Assembly: GCA_963707025.1 (NCBI GenBank)
Contig: CAVPOM010000011.1
Location: forward strand, 32,001-96,000
Source: an uncultured Verrucomicrobiae bacterium
GTDB taxonomy: Bacteria; Verrucomicrobiota; Verrucomicrobiia; Limisphaerales; Palsa-1400
DNA length: 64,000 nucleotides
Reading direction: 5' to 3'
Positions 22,376-62,309 of the stretch are shown here, piece after piece. The notes below the pieces were generated by a model. It ran no database searches. It was not told where the DNA came from and saw only the letters and a program-made list of their open reading frames with translations. Numbering within the stretch: the first letter of the stretch is position 1; every line of letters begins with the position of its first letter. The position numbers were made by a program, and so were the translations under genes.

Positions 22376-22426
22376 GTGGACAATGTGTATGGCGACCGGA
22401 ACCTGGTCTGCGCCTGTCAAACATAA
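22371..22426 (+). pseudogene. Diverged duplicate of the gcvP 3' end (21066..21121)
   Basis: [17 protein letters not shown] versus [17 protein letters not shown], 49/56 nt identical. Confidence 0.9.
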
Positions 22427-24693
22427 TTGACGCGCAGCAAAGCCTTGAGCCGTTCGCGGAAAAACGGGCTGGCCGACGACAGGATCAAAAACGGCAGCAG
22501 CATCGCGCAAGTGAACATGGCCATAAACAGTCCGATCGCAAGGAACGGGCCGAAACCAGTGCTGAAAGGCAACCCCAGCGGGCCCCATAGATACCACGCC
22601 GCCGACACCGCGACCCAGACGGCCACCACGGACAAGAAAAGCCACACGCCCAGCCGGAACGCGCCCCCGCGCCCCCGGCTGGCCAGCCCGCCCAAAACGA
22701 AAGCGGCGGCGACCACCAAGGCCAGCACCGCCAGCGGACCCAGCAACGGCATCCCCAACGCCCCGGCGCCGGTCGTGGCCGAAAATTGTCGCGGGTCGAA
22801 AAGGCCCAGGATTGGCTCGACTTCCTGGTCCCAACCCGCCATGGCCGCAAGGCTGAAAACGATAACCACCGCCAAGAGCAACCAGCCGACGAGGAAACCG
22901 CCGAAGCGAGGGATGCCCCCAAGCCAGGATGCCAGCAACCAGAGCGCGGCCAACCCAAACGCCAGCGCGACGGGAACATCGCACAGCACCTCAAACGCCC
23001 CCTTGGGCATACCCGCGCTCGAGCTTTCAATTCCCAATTCCAGGTAATGCCACCCGGCTGCCAAGCCGGCCAGCGGCAGCCAAATCCACCAAGCGCGCCA
23101 GCCGCGATTGGGTTTAAGCGCCAGCAAAGCCAGGATGGCCAGCCATGGCAGCAAAGGCGCCATCGTGCCCTCTGCCATCCAATCGCAAGTTACCGGCGGA
23201 CCTTCCGTGGCGCCCAGCCCGCCCAAACCCCACGAAGCTGCGATTTGCAGTTCGCCTCCCGTCCTGGAGGGTACTCGCCATGAGTACGCGCAGAAGCCGT
23301 CTCAGCCAAATTCAAATTGGCCCGCCCCGATTTCTTTCCCCGACTTGCGGACGGTAAATTGCGGAGCAATCCGGTTGGTCCCTTGCCACACTCTGTATTC
23401 TCCGCCGCTGGCGCCGATTAATCGGTGGCTGAGAATCAACTGCCGCCCCTGACGGGTGGCGGAGACGGAATTAGTCAACGGCCCTCCCACGGCTAAAACC
23501 GCGGGCCGCTGCTCATCCACCGCGATGGCCTGCTCAGGCGACGGCGGACTTAACACCGGCAGTTTCGCCCCGGTGACTTCCTCCAGCATGTTCGCCTTCC
23601 CGGTTTGCGGCAGGCCGAAATTGAAGTAGGCTCGCGTCTGGCCCTGCTGGAGCCAGACGCGATAAGGATGGTATCGGTCGGTCGGCACTTTCACGATGCC
23701 CGGAGGATGGGCCAGCACCACCACGTACTTTTCTCCCGTCAGGACGAGGCGTTCAATGAAGCTGCCGGTGATTCGCAATTCGCCCAGCGCGGCTGGTTGT
23801 TCGGTCAGCCGCAACGCCAGTTTGTCTTCAGGTCCTTGAGGCTCGGCGTTCCAATCCAATAAGCAGGCGTGTCCCTCGAAGAACACCCTTGGGGAAAAGG
23901 CGAACGTGTCCGACGCCCTGACCACACAGTTCTGCTCTGTCCAGGGAATCACGTACACGCCACCCGGCTCGCTGCAGGCCAGGAACGGCCGGTTCCGCTC
24001 TTCCCAGGGACGCAGCAACAATTGGCCGTGGCGGAAGGAGCCAGGCTCGTCTGACATATTCTGCACCAACCCCGCCTGCCAATCATGGCCTTGCAGAGTC
24101 AACTTGCCTTGCCAACAGGAGCGCAAGGCCGCATTGCAGAGCGGCTGCCCCGGCCGCCGGGCGGAGTCCAGGGAGAAACGCAGGTCCACCAGCATCGGCG
24201 CGCCGCCGGAGGAGGCGGGAAACGACAAGTGGATGTTGGTGAACATCTGGTTCAGGAAAGTCGGTTCTGACGACCACATGGCCTGCCCCGAAAACATCCC
24301 GGCAGGATCCTCCGCCCAATCCGGGTTCCGCTTCAGACCGAGGCAGAGTTTTTTCGCGCCGCATTGCCAGAGGAAAGGAATGGCGTTGCCTGGGTTGGCG
24401 CCGAACTTCAATACTCCGCGCACGACCGGACCGGCAGCCAGCGCCGGCTCTTTTGGGAATGGAACAGACCGGCGCTCGATGGGAACATCCCGGAACAGGA
24501 ATTGGTAACTCGTCTCGTGATACTCCAACGCAACGGTCGTCGTGTTGGAGGAAGGGGAACTGGCAGGAACAGAATCAGCGGCGCAAAGAGCATGGCCCGA
24601 ACAAAGCGCCACCAGCAGCACCGGGGTCAGCCAAGCCACTCCGGCGTTTCCCAGCCAGCGCCACGAAAAACAGCCAGTCCTCCGTTTTGCCAT
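22417..24693 (-). CDS. Putative selenoprotein (~758 aa): exported N-domain, in-frame TGA at 23302..23304, C-terminal multi-TM domain
   Basis: ORFs 23302..24765 and 22417..23226 share a frame and are separated by one TGA: QFEFG*DGFCAYSWRVP; hairpin 23271..23287; paralog at 60526. Confidence 0.75.
23262..23304 (-). promoter_or_regulatory. SECIS-like hairpin after the in-frame UGA
   Basis: mRNA UGA-GACGGC-UUCUG-CGC-GUACUC-AUGGC-GAGUAC-CCUC-CAGGA. Confidence 0.65.
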
Positions 24694-24948: not shown

Positions 24949-26256
24949 ATGAGCCAAACCACCCGATTCGTATTGTCGCAGGCCGATATCCCCAAGCAAT
25001 GGTACAACCTGCTGGCCGATTTTCCCGAACCGCTGCCCCCGCCGCTCCATCCGGGCACGCGCCAGCCGGTCTCGCCGGATATGTTGACGCAGATTTTTCC
25101 TGAAAACCTCGTCCAGCAGGAGATGTGCCCGGACCGGTGGGTCGAAATCCCCGAAGCGGTGCGCGAGGTCTATGCGCTCTGGCGGCCCACCCCGCTGTTG
25201 CGCGCGGTGCGGTTGGAGCGCGCCCTGAAAACCCCGGCCCACATCTATTACAAGTATGAAGGGGCCAGTCCGGCCGGCAGCCACAAGCCCAACACGGCGG
25301 TGGCGCAGGCTTACTTCAACAAGGCCGCCGGCACCAAGCGGCTGGCCACCGAAACCGGCGCCGGCCAATGGGGATCCTCCCTCGCCCTGGCCTGCCAGTT
25401 GTTTGGACTGGACTGCAACATCTACATGGTCAAGGTCAGCTACCAGCAAAAGCCCTACCGCCGCATGCTCATGCACACCTGGGGCGCGACGGTTCATGCC
25501 AGTCCCAGCGATCAGACCAGTTTCGGCCGCAAACTGCTGGCCCAGGACCCGCAGTGTCCCGGCAGCCTGGGCATCGCCATCAGCGAAGCCATCGAGGACA
25601 CCGTGACCCATCCGCACACCAAGTATTCCCTGGGCAGCGTGCTCAACCACGTTTGCCTGCACCAGACGGTGATCGGCCAGGAAGCCATCCGCCAGATGGA
25701 AATGGCCGGCGAGGAACCGGACTCCATCTACGCCTGCGCGGGCGGGGGCAGCAATTTCTCCGGACTGGCCTTCCCCTTCCTGCAAAGGAAAATCAAAGAC
25801 AAGAAGAATTATCGCATCGTGGCCGTCGAACCCTCCGCCTGCCCGTCGCTCACCCGGGGCGAGTTGCGCTACGATTTTGGCGACACGGCAGAGACGACGC
25901 CCCTGCTCATGATGTACACCCTGGGCCACCAGTTCATGCCGCCGTCCATCCATGCGGGTGGCCTGCGCTATCACGGCATGTCGCCCATGGTCAGCCACGC
26001 CCTCAAGCTGGGGTTGATCGAGGCCCAGGCCATTCACCAGACCAAGGTGTTTCAGGCCGGGACCCTCTTTGCCCGCACCGAAGGCATCGTGCCCGCGCCG
26101 GAAGCGGCCCATGCCATCGCGGCGGTCATTGCCGAGGCCGAGCAGGCGCGCGAGGCGGGGCAAAAACGCGTCATCCTGTTCAATCTTTCGGGGCACGGAT
26201 TGCTCGACCTCAGCGCCTACGAAACCTACCAAATGGGCAAGATCCAGGACGTCTAA
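24949..26256 (+). CDS. trpB2: TrpB2 (stand-alone tryptophan synthase beta-like PLP enzyme)
   Basis: [55 protein letters not shown]. Confidence 0.93.
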
Positions 26257-55407: not shown

Positions 55408-58400
55408 ATGCGCCATGCTTCGCCAGTTCGGGTCCGGACCGGAACCATCACCCTTCCCACCTGGCGGCCCGCGCCGCCGGACAAGAACCCGATGTTTCTG
55501 GAAAAACGCGTTTATCAGGGCAGCAGCGGCAGGGTGTATCCGCTGCCGTTCACCGACCGCATCGCCGAAAAACCGGTCCGCCGCAAATGGCAGGCGGTCT
55601 GGATTGAAAACGAGTTCCTCCGCGTCCTGGTGCTGCCCGAAATCGGCGGGCGCATCCACGCCATCCAGGACAAGACCAACGGTTACGATCTGATTTACAA
55701 TCAGCCCGTCATCAAGCCCGCCCTGGTCGGCCTGGCCGGGCCGTGGATTTCCGGCGGGATCGAGTTCAACTGGCCGCAGCATCATCGTCCCGCCACCTTC
55801 CTGCCCGTGGATGTTAAAATCGAATCGCACGCCGATGGCTCCAAAACCATCTGGTGCGGCGACCACGACCCGATGTGCCGGATGAAAGGCATGCACGGCG
55901 TCTGCCTGCATCCGGGCCGGAGCTGCCTGGAATTGAAGGTGCGCGCTTACAACCGCACGCCCTTCCAGCAGACTTTTCTCTGGTGGGCCAATGTCGCCAT
56001 GCGCGTGCATGAGGCCTATCAAAGCTTTTTCCCGCCGGACGTTTATTACGTGGCCGACCACGCGCAGGCGCGCCATGAGCGAATATCCGCTCTGCCAGGA
56101 ATGTCTATTACGGCGTCAACTACGGCCGAGCGCGGCGCGCCGGGGCATTCCGCAAAATGAAATTCCAAAGCAGTTCCTCCCGCCCCACTGCCGGCGGGTC
56201 GATCGCAGTCCGCATGCCCGAATACGCGCCGAACGACCTTTCCTTTTACGCCAACATTCCGGTGCCGACCTCCTACATGTGCATGGGCAGCCGGGAGGAT
56301 TTCTTCGGCGGCTACGATTACGCGGCGCAGGCGGGCATCGTTCACGTCGCCAACCACCACATTTCGCCCGGCAAGAAACAATGGACCTGGGGCAATCACG
56401 AATTCGGTTACGCCTGGGACCGCAACCTGACCGAGCGCGACGGCAAAGGTGAATTCGGCGCCCTACATCGAAATCATGGCCGGCGTCTATACCGACAACC
56501 AGCCCGACTTCAGCTTTCTCCAGCCCGGCGAGACGAAAACGTGGAGCCAGTATCTGGTATCCCATCCAAAAAATCGGCCCGGCGCAACACGCCAATCTGC
56601 AGGCGGCCGTCAGCCTGAAAATCGCAGAATCGGCCGCGCGCGCCTTGGCGTCGCTGTCACCACGGAACATTCCGGGCGCGGCCATTGCCCTGATTTGGCA
56701 AAAGCAAACGCTGGCAAAATGCGACGGCGCGACCTGGCGCCGGGTTCGCCGTTCGTCAAGGAAGTCAGCCTTCCGCGTGGCACCGGCGAAACCGGGCTGC
56801 TGCTGCGCGTCCTGGACCGCGCCGGCCGCGAAATTATTTCTTACGCGCCGAAGCCGCGCGTCCGGGGCGCAGTGCCGCCGCCCGCGACCGAACCGGCCGC
56901 GCCGGCGGACATCGCCAGCGCGGACGAATTGTTCATCACCGGCCTGCATCTGGAACAGTATCGCCATGCCACCCGTTCCCGGTGCTATATTGGCGCGAGG
57001 CGTTGCGCCGCGACCCGGTGGATGCGCGCTGCAACAACGCCCTGGGTCTGTGGCACCTGCAGCGCGGCGAATTCACTCTGGCGGAGGAATTCTTCCGCAG
57101 AGCCATCGCGCGCCTGACGCGCCGCAATCCCAATCCTTCCGACGGCGAGGCCTTTTACAACCTGGGCTTGTGCCTGCGCCATCTGGGCCGCGATGATGAA
57201 GCTTATGGCGCGTTTTACAAAGCCACCTGGAACCAGGCGTGGATGGCGGCGGGTTATCACGCGCTGGCGGAACTGGCTTGCAAAAAATCAGACTGGGCAG
57301 GCGCGCTGGAACATCTGAACCGCTCGCTCCGTTTCAACACCGACAATCTGCGGGCGCGCAATCTGAAGGTCATGGTCTTGCGGAGGCTCGGCCGTGAAGC
57401 CGAGGCGGGTGTGCTGCTGCGCGAAACGCTCGCGCTGGACCCGCTGGACTGGTGGGCGCGGCTCTTGACGGGCGGAAATTCCCGGTTGCGATTTGCCCAC
57501 GCATCTGGACCTGGCGCACGATCTGGCGCAGCGCGGGTTTTGCGCTGAGGCGGTGGCGGCTGCTGGAGGGCGCGCCCGTCCAGAGCGGCGGGTGAGTTGC
57601 CAACCAAAGTTTGGGAGCGTTGCCGCTGGTCCACTACACGCTCGGCTGGCTTCAGGAAAAACTGGGCAATAAAAAATCCGCCTTGCGGCATTTCCGCCAG
57701 GCGGCGCGCGCTCCCGCCGGATTATTGTTTTCCGTGCGCGTCTGGAAGAGATTGCGGTGTTGGAAGCGGCCATGCGGGCCAATCCGCACGACGCCCGCGC
57801 GCCTTATTATCTGGGCAATTTGTTTTACGACCGCCGCCGCCACGCCGAGGCCATCCGGCTTTGGGAGCGCAGCGCGAAATTGAATCCCGATTTCTCCATC
57901 GTCTGGCGCAACCTCGGCATCGGTTACTTCAACATTTCCAAACAACCGGCCAAAGCCCGCGCCGCTTACGAGCGCGCCTTCCGGGCCAATCCGCGCGACG
58001 CGCGGCTGCTCTTCGAGCGCGACCAGCTTTGGAAACGGCTCGGCGAAAAACCGGCGAAACGATTGCGGGAACTGGAAAAATATGCCGCGCTCGTCCGCCA
58101 GCGCGACGATTTGACGGTGGAACTGTGCGCGCTCTCAATCAGACCGGCCGCCACGTCGAAGCGATGCAACTCCTGGCCCAACGCCGGTTTCAGCCGTGGG
58201 AAGGCGGCGAAGGCGGGGCGCTGGGCCAGCACGTCCGCACGCAGCTTGCGCTCGGACGCGCAGGCCCTGGCACAGCAAGATTTTCCGCTGCGCCGCCAGG
58301 CCATTTTGAGAACGCGCTCGCTCGCGCCGGAAAATCTCGGCGAAGCCAGGCATCTGCTGGCCAACCAGAGCGACATTCATTATTGGCTGGGCGTCGCGCT

Positions 58401-58842
58401 GGATTTGCTCGGCGAGCAAAAAAGGCGCGCGCAGCACTGGCTGGCCGCCGCCAACTTCAAGGGCGATTTTCAGGAGATGAGCGTCCGCGCTTTTCAGCGA
58501 AATGACCTTTTACTCGGCGCTGTGCACTGCGAAAAGCTGGGCCGGAAGCGGAGGCGAAAAAACTTTTGCGCGACTTGCTGGCCTACGCGCAAAAGCGTTG
58601 CAAAAGTCGCCGGCCAAAATTGATTACTTCGCCACGTCGCTGCCGACCATGCTGCTGTTCGAGGATGATTTGCCATTCCGCCAGGAAACAACCGCGCTGT
58701 TTTTGCAGGCGCAGGCGCGGCTGGGCCTGGGGCAAAAAGCGAAGGCGCAGGCGCTTTTGCGGAAAGTTTTGCGGCGCGACCCGAACCACGCGCTGGCGGC
58801 GGATTTGTGGGCGGGTTGGCCCCGCGGAAGGGAGCCGCATGA
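55408..58842 (+). CDS. DUF5107 + TPR protein, multiple apparent frameshifts
   Basis: VYQGSSGRVYPLP, LPEIGGRI, GGIEFNWPQHHRP, PGKKQWTWG, YIEIMAGVYTDNQPDF, TPRs, IDYFATSLP across several frames. Confidence 0.8.
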
Positions 58843-60265
58843 CGGCGGTGGCTCCAAAAGACGACCCGCCTCTCAAGGCCGAATACAATTTCGGTTACAT
58901 CTGGCTCATTTCCGTGACGCCGCGCTTGGGCGGGCTGTTGTTCGGCTACGACTGGGTGGTCATTGGCGGGGCGAAGCCGTTTTTCGAGCGGTACTTTCAC
59001 CTGGCCAAAGCCGCGCAATCCGGCTGGGCGAACAGTTGCGCGCTCATCGGCTGTCTGGCGGGCGCGCTCGTCGCCGGCGCGTTGAGCGACAAGTTCGGCC
59101 GGAAAAGATTGTTGATCGCTTCGGCGTTTTTGTTCGCGCGTCACCTCGCTGGGCAACGCGCTGGCGCCGAATGTTTTCCATTTTCGTCGCGTGGCGGATG
59201 CTGGGCGGCGTGGCCATCGGCCTGGCTTCGAACCTTTCGCCGATGTATATCGCCGAAATCGCCCCGGCGCGGATGCGCGGCAAACTGGTCTCCATCAACC
59301 AGCTCACCATCGTCATCGGCGTGCTGGCGGCGCAACTGATCAACTGGTCGCTCGTGCGCCATCTGCCGCCGGGCGCGACGGATGAGTTCATCGTCAATTC
59401 CTGGTATGGCCAGTCCGGCTGGCGCTGGATGTTTGCCCTCACCGCCATTCCTGCGGCGTTGTTTTTTGCCGGCATGTTTTTCGTTCCCGAAAGCCCGCGC
59501 TGGCTGGCCAAAAACGGCAAGCCCGAACAGGCCCGCGCCGTCCTGCAAAAAATCGGCGGGGCGAGCTTACGCGGGTCAGCGCCGCTCCGGGAAATCGAGG
59601 CGACGCTGGTGAACGAAACCGAAAAGGTGGATTTCCGCGAACTGCTGCAGCCGAGGATGAGAAAGGTGCTGGTGCTGGGCGTCGTGCTGGCCGTGTTCCA
59701 GCAATGGTGCGGCATCAACGTCATTTTCAATTACGCCGAGGAGATTTTCAGGGCCGCCGGCTACGACATTTCCACCGTGCTGAAAAACATCGCCTGGACC
59801 GGCTCGGTCAACCTGGCGTTCACCTTTGTCGCGCTGGGCGTGGTGGACCGCCGCGGGCGGCGTCCGCTGATGCTGTTCGGCGCGGCGGGGCTGGCGGTCA
59901 TCTACACGGCGATCGAGTTTTTGTTATCACGCGCGGCGTGCAGGGATGGCCGGTGCTGCTGCTCGTGCTGGCGGCCATCGCCTGTTATTCCATGTCGCTG
60001 GCGCCGGTGACGTGGGTGGTGATTTCGGAAATCTTTCCCGAATCGCATCCGCGGCGCGGCCATGGCCGTCGCCGTGGCGGCGCTGTGGCTGGCCTGTTTC
60101 ATCCTGACTTACACGTTCCCGATTTTGAAGGACAAGCTCGGTCCGGCGGGCACGTTCTGGCTCTACGCCGCCATCTGCGCACTGGGCCTGCTTTTCATCT
60201 GGAAGAAACTGCCCGAAACCAAGGGGCGGACGCTGGAACAGATCGAAAAGGAATTGGTGAAATAG
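58839..60265 (+). CDS. Sugar porter MFS transporter, apparent frameshifts
   Basis: GGLLFGYD, DKFGRK, PMYIAEIAP, PESPRWL, QQWCGIN, PETKG. Confidence 0.88.
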
Positions 60266-60272
60266 GGGGCGG

Positions 60273-60443
60273 ATCTTGACACTGCTGCCGGCGTCTGGCG
60301 AAAGAATGCCATAGGAGTGCGCCCGTCCTCGGGCGCAGCCGCGTGGGAAACACGGCGCGCCGGTGATTTTCCTGAGCACCCAAACCATCCCTGGCTTGCT
60401 GCGGCCGGGGACGGCCGCACTCCGCCGGCAGCAGTGTCAAGAT
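60273..60443. repeat. 171-bp element with perfect 21-bp terminal inverted repeats
   Basis: ATCTTGACACTGCTGCCGGCG ... CGCCGGCAGCAGTGTCAAGAT. Confidence 0.75.
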
Positions 60444-60470
60444 GCGCGTTGAAATAGGTGCGTTTAGGGA

Positions 60471-60498
60471 TTGACATCGCCGGGGGAAGGACTAATGT
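60471..60498 (+). promoter_or_regulatory. Possible sigma70 promoter
   Basis: TTGACA-N16-TAATGT upstream of the 60526 ATG. Confidence 0.35.
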
Positions 60499-60525: not shown

Positions 60526-62031
60526 ATGAAAAAGTCACTATTTTTATGCGGAGCGCTCTTGCTGGCGGTTCCGGGTCTTTCGCCGGCAGCGGACTATCCC
60601 CTGGTATTCAAGACCCTCGATGCCCAGCAGGCCATGTCCTTTCCTTCCGGCTCCACCATTTACGCCATGATGCAGGCCGCCAAACCGGCTGGCCTCCACA
60701 AGGCGCCGCCGGCCGTCTCCCAGCACCCGCTCTATGGCCAGATTGCGGCCGGAAGCGACCAACTCCTGTGCCGGCTGGATGAATCCAAAGGCACCGGCCA
60801 GGGCTATGACCGGCTGATCGTGGACGTGAATCAGAATGGGGACCTGACGGACGACCCGGTGGTCAACCTGGTCCCGTCCGCCATGCATCAAGGAGTGGTC
60901 TCCGCGCCGCAGCAATTGCTCTTTGGGCCGATTCAGGCGCCGGACAATCTTAAGATTGGGGCGGATCGCCCCGTCTTTTTCGCCCAGGTTTACATGTTCA
61001 TGGCAGCGGGGATCTCGGCTGCCGCCATGCCCAATGCCACCGTCGCCGAGATTCTCGTCCGGCCGGGCTGGTATTTGGAAGCCACGGTGAACGTGGATGG
61101 CAAGGAGCACAAGGTGGGCTTGGTGGACGGGAACTGCAATTTCCGCATCGGGGACCCGGAACGGCCCGTGACTTCCCGGACTGGGGTCAATGGCAGCGAA
61201 ACCAGTTGGTATTTCCAGGGCGGCGACCGTTTCCTGATGGACTGGGGCCGTGCAGGAGGCATGCAAAGCTCCGTTCTGGAAGACCAATCCCGTTCCTTCG
61301 GCCCATTGCTTTATCTGGGCGCCAAGCCCTATAAAGTCGCCGTGGCCGCTGACAGCAAATCGCTGTCGCTGGCCCCCTGGACCGAGCCGCTGGCGGAGTT
61401 GGCCATGCAACCGGGCGGGGAGCACATCAGCAGCTTGGAGCTGGCTTGGGAGAAAGCCCCTGGCGACTGGGTGCTGCTGCAGCCCGGCGTCGAAAACGGC
61501 AAGGCCAAAGTGCCGCCGGGCAACTATCGGCTTTATTCCTTGGTCTTGAAAGGCAAAACCGCGGCCGGCGATTCCCTGATCATGAGCGGCATCAAGCGCG
61601 CTCCGGAAGGCACCGTCAAGGCCGTGGCCGGGGAAACCACGCCCTTGAAGTGCGGCGCGCCGCTGCAAATCAACTTGAGTTCCGTGCCCACGCGCGCTGC
61701 CGGCGGCTTGTTGCAGGGTCTCTTCGGTCAGGCCGGCCCTGCGCAGACCATCCAGGCTTCCATCCTCGGCGCCGGAGGGGAGACCTATTCAGCCCCTCAA
61801 CTGATGGGCGCCAGGGGAATGGGGCGCCCGCCGACCGGCCCGACTTACGCCGTCCTGACAACGGAAGGCAAACAGGTGGACTCGGGCAATCTGGAGTATG
61901 GCTGAGGCGGCGTTTGTTCGCACTCATGGCGAGTGCCCCAAGATTTGTCCGGCAAGAAAGTCACCATCAAAGCCGAGTTCGATCTGAAACCGATTGACAC
62001 GGTGAGCAAATCCATCGAAGTGCAGTTATAG
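60526..62031 (+). CDS. Putative exported selenoprotein (501 aa), in-frame TGA at 61903..61905
   Basis: Signal peptide; NLEYG*GGVCSHSWRVPQDLSGKKVTIKAEFDLKPIDTVSKSIEVQL then TAG at 62029..62031; motif shared with the 22417..24693 paralog. Confidence 0.75.
61903..61942 (+). promoter_or_regulatory. SECIS-like hairpin after the in-frame UGA
   Basis: UGA-GGCGGCG-UUUG-UUC-GCACUC-AUGGC-GAGUGC-CC-CAAG. Confidence 0.65.
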
Positions 62032-62309
62032 AAGCAGATGGCAATTGCCAGATGCGTCCGCCCCGGACTGCCAGGGGGGCAGTCCTGCTCATTTGCCGTG
62101 TCGAGCCTGCGGCTCGCAATCGGCGCAGAGCGCCGGCGCGGCAACGAATTTGGACACTACCGAAGTTAGGGCGTTTTCAAGAAAACCGTAGCCGCAGCAC
62201 GCGGTAGGGTCCCGGCAGGCCGGGATTGCCCGCCGCGGCGCGCACGGAGTGCGCGCCCTACCTCCCTCGTTTCGGCTACATCATTTCTTAAACCGCTCTT
62301 GCGTGCTTT

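Follow-up and report, generated by a model that had tools for sequence, protein, structure and literature searches.

A SECIS-like hairpin behind in-frame UGA codons marks candidate selenoproteins in a Verrucomicrobiae bacterium

The DNA analyzed here (the window) is a 64,000-nucleotide stretch of contig CAVPOM010000011.1 from an uncultured Verrucomicrobiae bacterium. It contains two related genes, A and B, that are each interrupted by an in-frame UGA codon, and a small hairpin follows both codons at the same distance (Table 1). Bacterial SECIS elements are hairpins behind UGA codons for selenocysteine (Sec). SelB reads such hairpins. The locus therefore raises the question of whether the two hairpins are SECIS elements, and if so, which proteins they would complete.

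Table 1. Positions of the genes, UGA codons, hairpins, and related loci (window positions unless a contig is named).
Feature	Position	Strand	Description
Gene A	60526..62031	+	501 aa, all-beta multidomain protein; C-terminal Ig-like domain with U460 and C464
In-frame UGA, gene A	61903..61905	+	Read as Sec460 (putative); motif EYG-U-GGVC
Candidate SECIS hairpin A	61920..61936	+	6-bp stem GCACUC/GAGUGC; arms 61920-61925 and 61931-61936; loop AUGGC 61926-61930
Gene B	22417..24693	-	Paralog of gene A; UxxxC domain, then hydrophobic multi-pass C-terminal part
In-frame UGA, gene B	23302..23304	-	Motif EFG-U-DGFC
Candidate SECIS hairpin B	23271..23287	-	6-bp stem GUACUC/GAGUAC; arms 23287-23282 and 23276-23271; loop AUGGC 23281-23277
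Second selenoprotein candidate, 119-aa membrane protein	C4:256658-257017 (L334:1159-1518)	+	TGA at C4:256811; hairpin at offset 21
Three paralogs around tRNA-Sec	C17:173500-183800 (L007)		4Fe-4S membrane protein and S41 peptidase in between
selA-selB-selD operon	C12:64900-69850 (L008)		Each gene frameshifted in the assembly

Two UGA-interrupted genes and their hairpins

Both hairpins were found again in the sequence as the preliminary description had given them. Each has a perfect 6-bp stem, an AUGGC loop, and a spacing of 20 nt from the UGA. The sole difference between the two stems is compensatory, as had been claimed. The Ser codon TCA and the Arg codon CGA, said to be unexpected in this genome, are indeed rare: across 2,822 long ORFs, TCA accounts for 5.5% of the Ser codons and CGA for 7.0% of those for Arg. 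The frame past the UGA is open for 41 codons in gene A and 294 codons in gene B. The probable start of gene B at 24693 was placed by comparison with a paralog, and the ORF call extends to 24765.

When codons were resampled synonymously, 1.5% of the draws for gene A and 3.5% of those for gene B contained a stem of at least 6 bp. A perfect stem with ATGGC was obtained in 0 of 20,000 draws for each gene. The energy varied with the window folded. It was -9.1 to -9.3 kcal/mol for hairpin A and -7.3 to -10.6 kcal/mol for hairpin B, which is borderline. The minimum free energy (MFE) structure of the gene B UGA plus 45 to 70 nt lacks the hairpin, which is present in shorter windows. Rfam covariance models applied to 61800-62300 did not match the hairpin; the single match was a chance one (E 2.4) that lay off it.

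The genome encodes five paralogs with the motif [FY]G-U-[GD]G-x-C-x-x-S-W, of which the window contains two and contig C17 three. The stem is present at offset 20 in all five. In one of them, His is replaced by Leu and Val by Glu together, and an A-U pair becomes U-A. The paralog at C17:182501 has a layout identical to that of gene B. In the paralog at C17:175216, the frame shifts a short way ahead of the UGA, probably through an indel in the assembly. The tRNA-Sec gene lies about 320 nt behind one of the C17 paralogs. Such adjacency was rejected as a general rule, because none of 60 other loci has tRNA-Sec within 1.5 kb.

A whole-genome search with the exact probe returned two sites at offset 20, genes A and B, and zero to two sites at each of 34 other offsets from 5 to 39. 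Because matches also occur at other offsets, the motif alone is not decisive, and the comparative data are.

Other features were seen in passing. Upstream of gene A, at 57757-60495 (+), are frameshifted TPR-repeat and sugar-porter genes, a further sign of assembly indel errors. A TrpB-like gene (tryptophan synthase beta type, judged by eye) is located at 24949-26256 (+), divergent from gene B. Two clusters of about 10 closely packed tRNA genes each, at C2:106545-112159 and C8:72468-81806, are suggestive of integrated elements.

Protein family, Sec machinery, and the residue read at the UGA

UGA homologs were retrieved by two DNA scans with patterns in which no stem base was fixed. The first returned at least 132 stretches (at least 131 distinct sites), and the second returned 97 (92 distinct). 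A profile built from the flanks alone kept 126 and 45 of these sites, respectively, for 171 sites among the matches listed. The 5 and 47 sites that it dropped were chance matches or too short. A protein profile search retrieved 1,890 cluster representatives at an E value of 0.001 or better, including some unrelated Ig-repeat proteins. By record titles, the family occurs in Verrucomicrobiota, Planctomycetota, Lentisphaeria, Armatimonadota, Sumerlaeota, Hydrogenedentota, and others.

The genome contains a canonical tRNA-Sec with a G discriminator and a long variable arm. It also contains selA, selB, and selD, which are intact in relatives. We read their frameshifts as assembly indels, since EF-Tu is likewise broken and the relatives' genes are whole. 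Cys occupies the catalytic site of the SelD encoded here, which is also extended at both ends: the N-terminal addition is rich in Cys, and the C-terminal one carries a CxxC motif. The alignment of SelB from a same-family genome with E. coli SelB (5lzb) extends through the C-terminal domain.

The co-occurrence samples overlap partly and contain kin that are not independent; in them, the family tracks this machinery. A selA gene was found in 48 of 50 family-bearing genomes, which had been selected out of about 150 so as to favor larger contigs and a variety of loops. One of the two genomes without a detected selA has a tRNA-Sec; the other is the Cys case (L009) described below. Among 300 genomes of the phylum that were at least 90% complete, selA was found in 17 and the domain across the site in 9, all within the 17. 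A tenth, weak match ends short of the UGA site. The family is present in 7 of 20 relatives, and every match spanning the site in the phylum sample and these relatives has one TGA. A selD gene was found in all 33 records checked for it, and selB in 28 of the 30 checked.

Some homologs read through the site. The best 150 profile matches include 91 that end at Gly and 52 ungapped read-through rows, 15 with Cys and 37 with other residues, mostly single-base neighbors of UGA. At the protein level, only 3 of the 15 Cys heptapeptides could encode the stem under any codon choice, versus 167 of the 171 UGA sites. Cys homologs do not keep the hairpin equally well; the preliminary description had named equal retention as an outcome that would count against a SECIS. 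The other-residue homologs are still stem-compatible in 25 of 37 cases. Trp and Pro are kept in many Cys forms too, so part of the loop is constrained by the protein.

DNA scans for Cys homologs yielded 1 real homolog among 27 genomic stretches and none among 43 metagenomic stretches (34 distinct). A scan with the Cys-type proteins retrieved two loci, both UGA forms with the hairpin, and no Cys locus. The sole genomic Cys homolog found (L009, on G001:C290) is a TGT copy with a perfect hairpin. In its genome, 3.1 Mb with no completeness value given, no selA and no tRNA-Sec over the cut-off were detected. A second copy there has TGA, has lost the Cys, contains an upstream stop, and looks decayed. 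L009 is thus a possible snapshot of recent Sec loss.

It may be asked whether the hairpin is read by SelB as proposed and a residue other than Sec is inserted, for example, Cys by a tRNA of the tRNA-ReC/SelC* type. SECIS-dependent UGA-to-Cys recoding is described in PMC13582414, and Cys occupies the site in the 15 homologs above. The canonical tRNA-Sec is, however, the only UCA-anticodon tRNA found in this genome, and the family goes together with selA and selD, genes required for nothing but selenium use. We consider insertion of another residue very unlikely and infer that Sec is inserted at the UGA.

The proteins of genes A and B matched no Pfam or NCBIfam family. A search with 64 members of the Sec domain gave single weak, unrelated matches only (best E value, 0.009). 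NF049953 (GUxG family) has no match in the genome. Gene A appears by eye to encode a signal peptide. Its whole protein was modeled as all-beta (pLDDT 89), with no overall structural match (TMq 0.17 or less). The predicted structure of the Sec domain is a beta-sandwich (pLDDT 82.5). In it, U sits on a turn that separates two strands, and four strands lie beyond the UGA. Foldseek found nothing for this domain at an E value of 0.001 or better. Its best structural matches are Ig-like, fibronectin-III, and macroglobulin beta-sandwich domains (Z 8 to 9; root mean square deviation, 2.4 to 3.2 Å over 92 to 102 residues), with the top rows tied and identity low, which indicates a common fold and not a family or function.

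An AhpC-TSA/Redoxin domain is fused to 5 of the 20 read-through homologs scanned. Among 17 family neighborhoods, the recurring genes were those for a carboxypeptidase-regulatory-like repeat protein (6 neighborhoods) and a 4Fe-4S membrane protein (4), together with selB (3) and selA (2). From these fusions and neighborhoods, the U/C pair has about an even chance of acting outside the cytoplasm as a redox or metal-binding site.

TGA is a normal stop codon in this genome, and 115 of the 120 listed database matches to gene A end at E[FY]G, directly before the UGA position. The UGA might then be a true stop, with a separate or vestigial gene downstream and a hairpin that serves reinitiation, pausing, or mRNA stability. 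This is still less probable than insertion of another residue. In the model, the UGA would split one beta-sandwich. The natural read-through homologs span the site in one chain, and no conserved start codon is found behind the UGA. With a true stop, TAA and TAG would be expected too, without the tracking of selA, whereas the spanning matches all have TGA.

Covariation of the hairpin and a second candidate

A stem of at least 6 bp with its 5' arm ending at nt 23 is present in 162 of the 171 flank-verified UGA sites among the matches listed, in which kin are not independent. The synonymous-codon null gave a mean of 7.5 and a maximum of 15 (300 replicates). Among the 151 sites with a 5-nt loop, pairs 23-29, 22-30, and 21-31 form in all 151, pair 20-32 in 145, pair 19-33 in 146, and pair 18-34 in 149. 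All six covary, often by way of amino acid changes (YSWRV, HSWRV, LSWRE, LRWPE, HTWRV, ASWGG, and YLGQI). The covariation that the preliminary description had looked for in a larger alignment is therefore strong and extends to every pair of the stem. The lower stem that it had thought possible folds in some windows of genes A and B but is not conserved, since pairs 17-35 and 16-36 are kept in only 53 and 28 of the 151 sites.

RNAalifold recovered only the six-pair helix from 45 sequences, with two-sided changes in all six pairs and a score of 0.706. Shuffled controls scored 0.232, and slid registers scored 0.19 at most. These sequences were hand-picked for diversity within the 5-nt register, so the count over 171 sites is the unbiased figure. 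CGA makes up 109 of 124 Arg codons at this position of the hairpin, versus 12% upstream. The MFE is -7.5 kcal/mol or lower in 134 of the 171 homologs among the matches listed.

The loop is more variable. In the 126 Trp-type sites it is RUGGN, with UGG fixed by the search pattern. Its first base, a silent position, is G in 81 and A in 45 and never C or U. AUGGC is not the universal loop of the family, as GUGGC, GGGUC, CGGCG, CGGGC, CGUGC, and the 3-nt loops GGC, GGU, and GUG also occur. The A form is dominant among the close kin of this genome. In records L011 to L090, it was found at 12 of 15 sites with Verrucomicrobiota titles and 6 of 49 with Planctomycetota titles. The SelB proteins of AUGGN-loop genomes of this lineage (L400, L401, L403, L406, L409, and L411) share a distinctive C-terminal tip. 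We do not claim that this tip coevolved with the A loop, because the sharers are kin and there are two A/G exceptions.

The hairpin had also been proposed as a probe for hidden selenoproteins. Its exact form misses three of the five paralogs, but a relaxed form led to an unrelated second UGA gene. The relaxed descriptor passed 3,908 TGAs, 15 of which had a coding signal before as well as after them. When the probe was tightened to C-RWGGN-G with 6 or more stem pairs and offsets 16 to 26, it returned 36 open sites, which include the five paralogs and the second gene; the remaining sites look non-coding. No TGA was found in the FdhA, SelD, AhpC-TSA, and DUF1573 matches of this genome. Screening for UGAs de novo by coding score mostly turned up antisense frames and adjacent genes and was abandoned.

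The second candidate encodes a 119-aa membrane protein. It is present in four of five same-genus genomes at 62 to 77% identity, and in these the TGA position is unchanged and is followed by a 7-bp stem at offset 21. The UGA and hairpin are kept in six genomes. Across five genomes, the loops are AUGGU, AUGGU, AUGGA, AUGGC, and AAGGU. Synonymous resampling put the chance of the hairpin at 2.5 to 5% for each gene. A natural homolog reads through with Gly, which indicates that the candidate is one gene. A distant homolog from another family, found in 1 of 250 genomes of the class, has C-U at the site and an offset-21 hairpin with the loop GGUCC. It is directly behind selB. The 119-aa protein belongs to no NCBIfam family and has a weak likeness to DUF4190 below the cut-off.

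The hairpin might have no RNA role and simply follow from the conserved peptide x-Y/H-S-W-R-V-P. This fits the Trp and Pro kept in Cys forms, but it is the least probable reading of all and is largely refuted by the synonymous null and the Cys-form comparison, with the CGA bias, the paired amino acid changes that preserve the stem, and the recurrence of the top of the stem and the spacing in the unrelated 119-aa protein also against it.

Comparison with known systems and best explanation

The hairpins were compared with the available parts of four printed sources (PMC13188914, PMC12013277, PMC13582414, and PMC13326102). As set out there in PMC13188914, a bSECIS lies in the coding region just 3' of the UGA. 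It has a loop of 3 to 9 nt whose first or second base is G, an upper stem of 4 to 16 bp, 16 to 37 nt from UGA to loop, and an MFE of -7.5 kcal/mol or lower; non-conforming classes exist. Hairpins A and B are like this model in their location, 5-nt loop, 6-bp upper stem, and 20-nt spacing, and the genome has a canonical SelB and tRNA-Sec. Their energy is near or below -7.5 kcal/mol, borderline in B. The hairpins differ from the model in that the first G of AUGGN is at position 3, there is no conserved lower stem, and the family has several loop types at one fixed distance. By the rule as given there, G is in the first two loop positions in 81 of the 126 Trp-type sites (GUGGN) and in 44 of the 45 non-Trp sites among the matches listed; it is in neither position in AUGGC of A and B and in 45 of the 126 Trp-type sites.

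The preliminary description regarded the hairpin as the SECIS form of its lineage. This holds for the genus and family and does not extend to the FdhA SECIS of a same-order genome (L310). That element belongs to an unrelated protein. It also has a single upper stem of 6 to 7 bp, a 5-nt loop, and a similar distance, but the loop is GGUCU at offset 18, with G first. The Sec-SelD genes of two family-bearing genomes likewise have hairpins of other kinds.

Gly-flanked Sec, as found here, also occurs in hypothetical protein DG (NF049953) and YeeE (GUxSG) in Table 1 of PMC13188914; the UxxxC spacing and the Ig-like fold, in place of a thioredoxin fold, set the present family apart. In the available part of that source, the UxxxC motif is in none of the 119 catalogued selenoprotein families. 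A literature search found no description of a UxxxC family, which supplements, the BSepDB site, and subscription papers could still list.

The best explanation is that the hairpin is a bacterial SECIS behind a Sec-UGA, with a loop variant outside the consensus (probability, about 0.93). It draws on the hairpin, its spacing and covariation, the co-occurrence of the family with the Sec machinery, the mid-domain UGA, and the loss of the stem in Cys forms. The ribosome would reach the in-frame UGA. By analogy with known systems, SelB-GTP-Sec-tRNA(Sec) would bind the apical loop 20 nt downstream via its C-terminal winged-helix domain and deliver selenocysteine. Translation would then continue and complete the Ig-like beta-sandwich, with U-G-G-x-C on the turn between two strands. 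Evidence to the contrary consists of the AUGGN loop that breaks the loop rule, the other fold of gene B in longer windows, the borderline energy of its hairpin, the hairpin kept in the L009 Cys copy, the stem-compatible other-residue homologs, and the frameshifts of selA, selB, and selD in the assembly.

These bacteria may maintain their whole Sec machinery chiefly to serve two uncatalogued clients. One would be a mobile UxxxC module with an Ig fold, located outside the cytoplasm, and the other a small membrane selenoprotein. The module has five copies here. It is fused to membrane or lectin domains in relatives and to peroxiredoxin-like domains in Cys forms. The loop class through which both clients would be read, A-[U/A]-G-G-N, departs from the bSECIS rule, and a lineage-specific SelB tip may match it. 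We give this joint picture balanced odds.

The main value of the hairpin is that it marks two uncatalogued selenoprotein candidates. It is also a tested probe for further hidden selenoproteins and a clear example from nature of a protein sequence being set by RNA structure. The UxxxC family appears to be a widespread selenoprotein family missing from the profile libraries checked and from the catalogue as far as compared. Three features probably hid it: annotated genes end at the UGA, Cys homologs are scarce, and the loop rule is broken in many members. It would place Sec on an Ig-like secreted domain and not on a thioredoxin or metal-enzyme fold. It may also explain why selABCD is kept in genomes whose FdhA, SelD, and peroxiredoxins use Cys.
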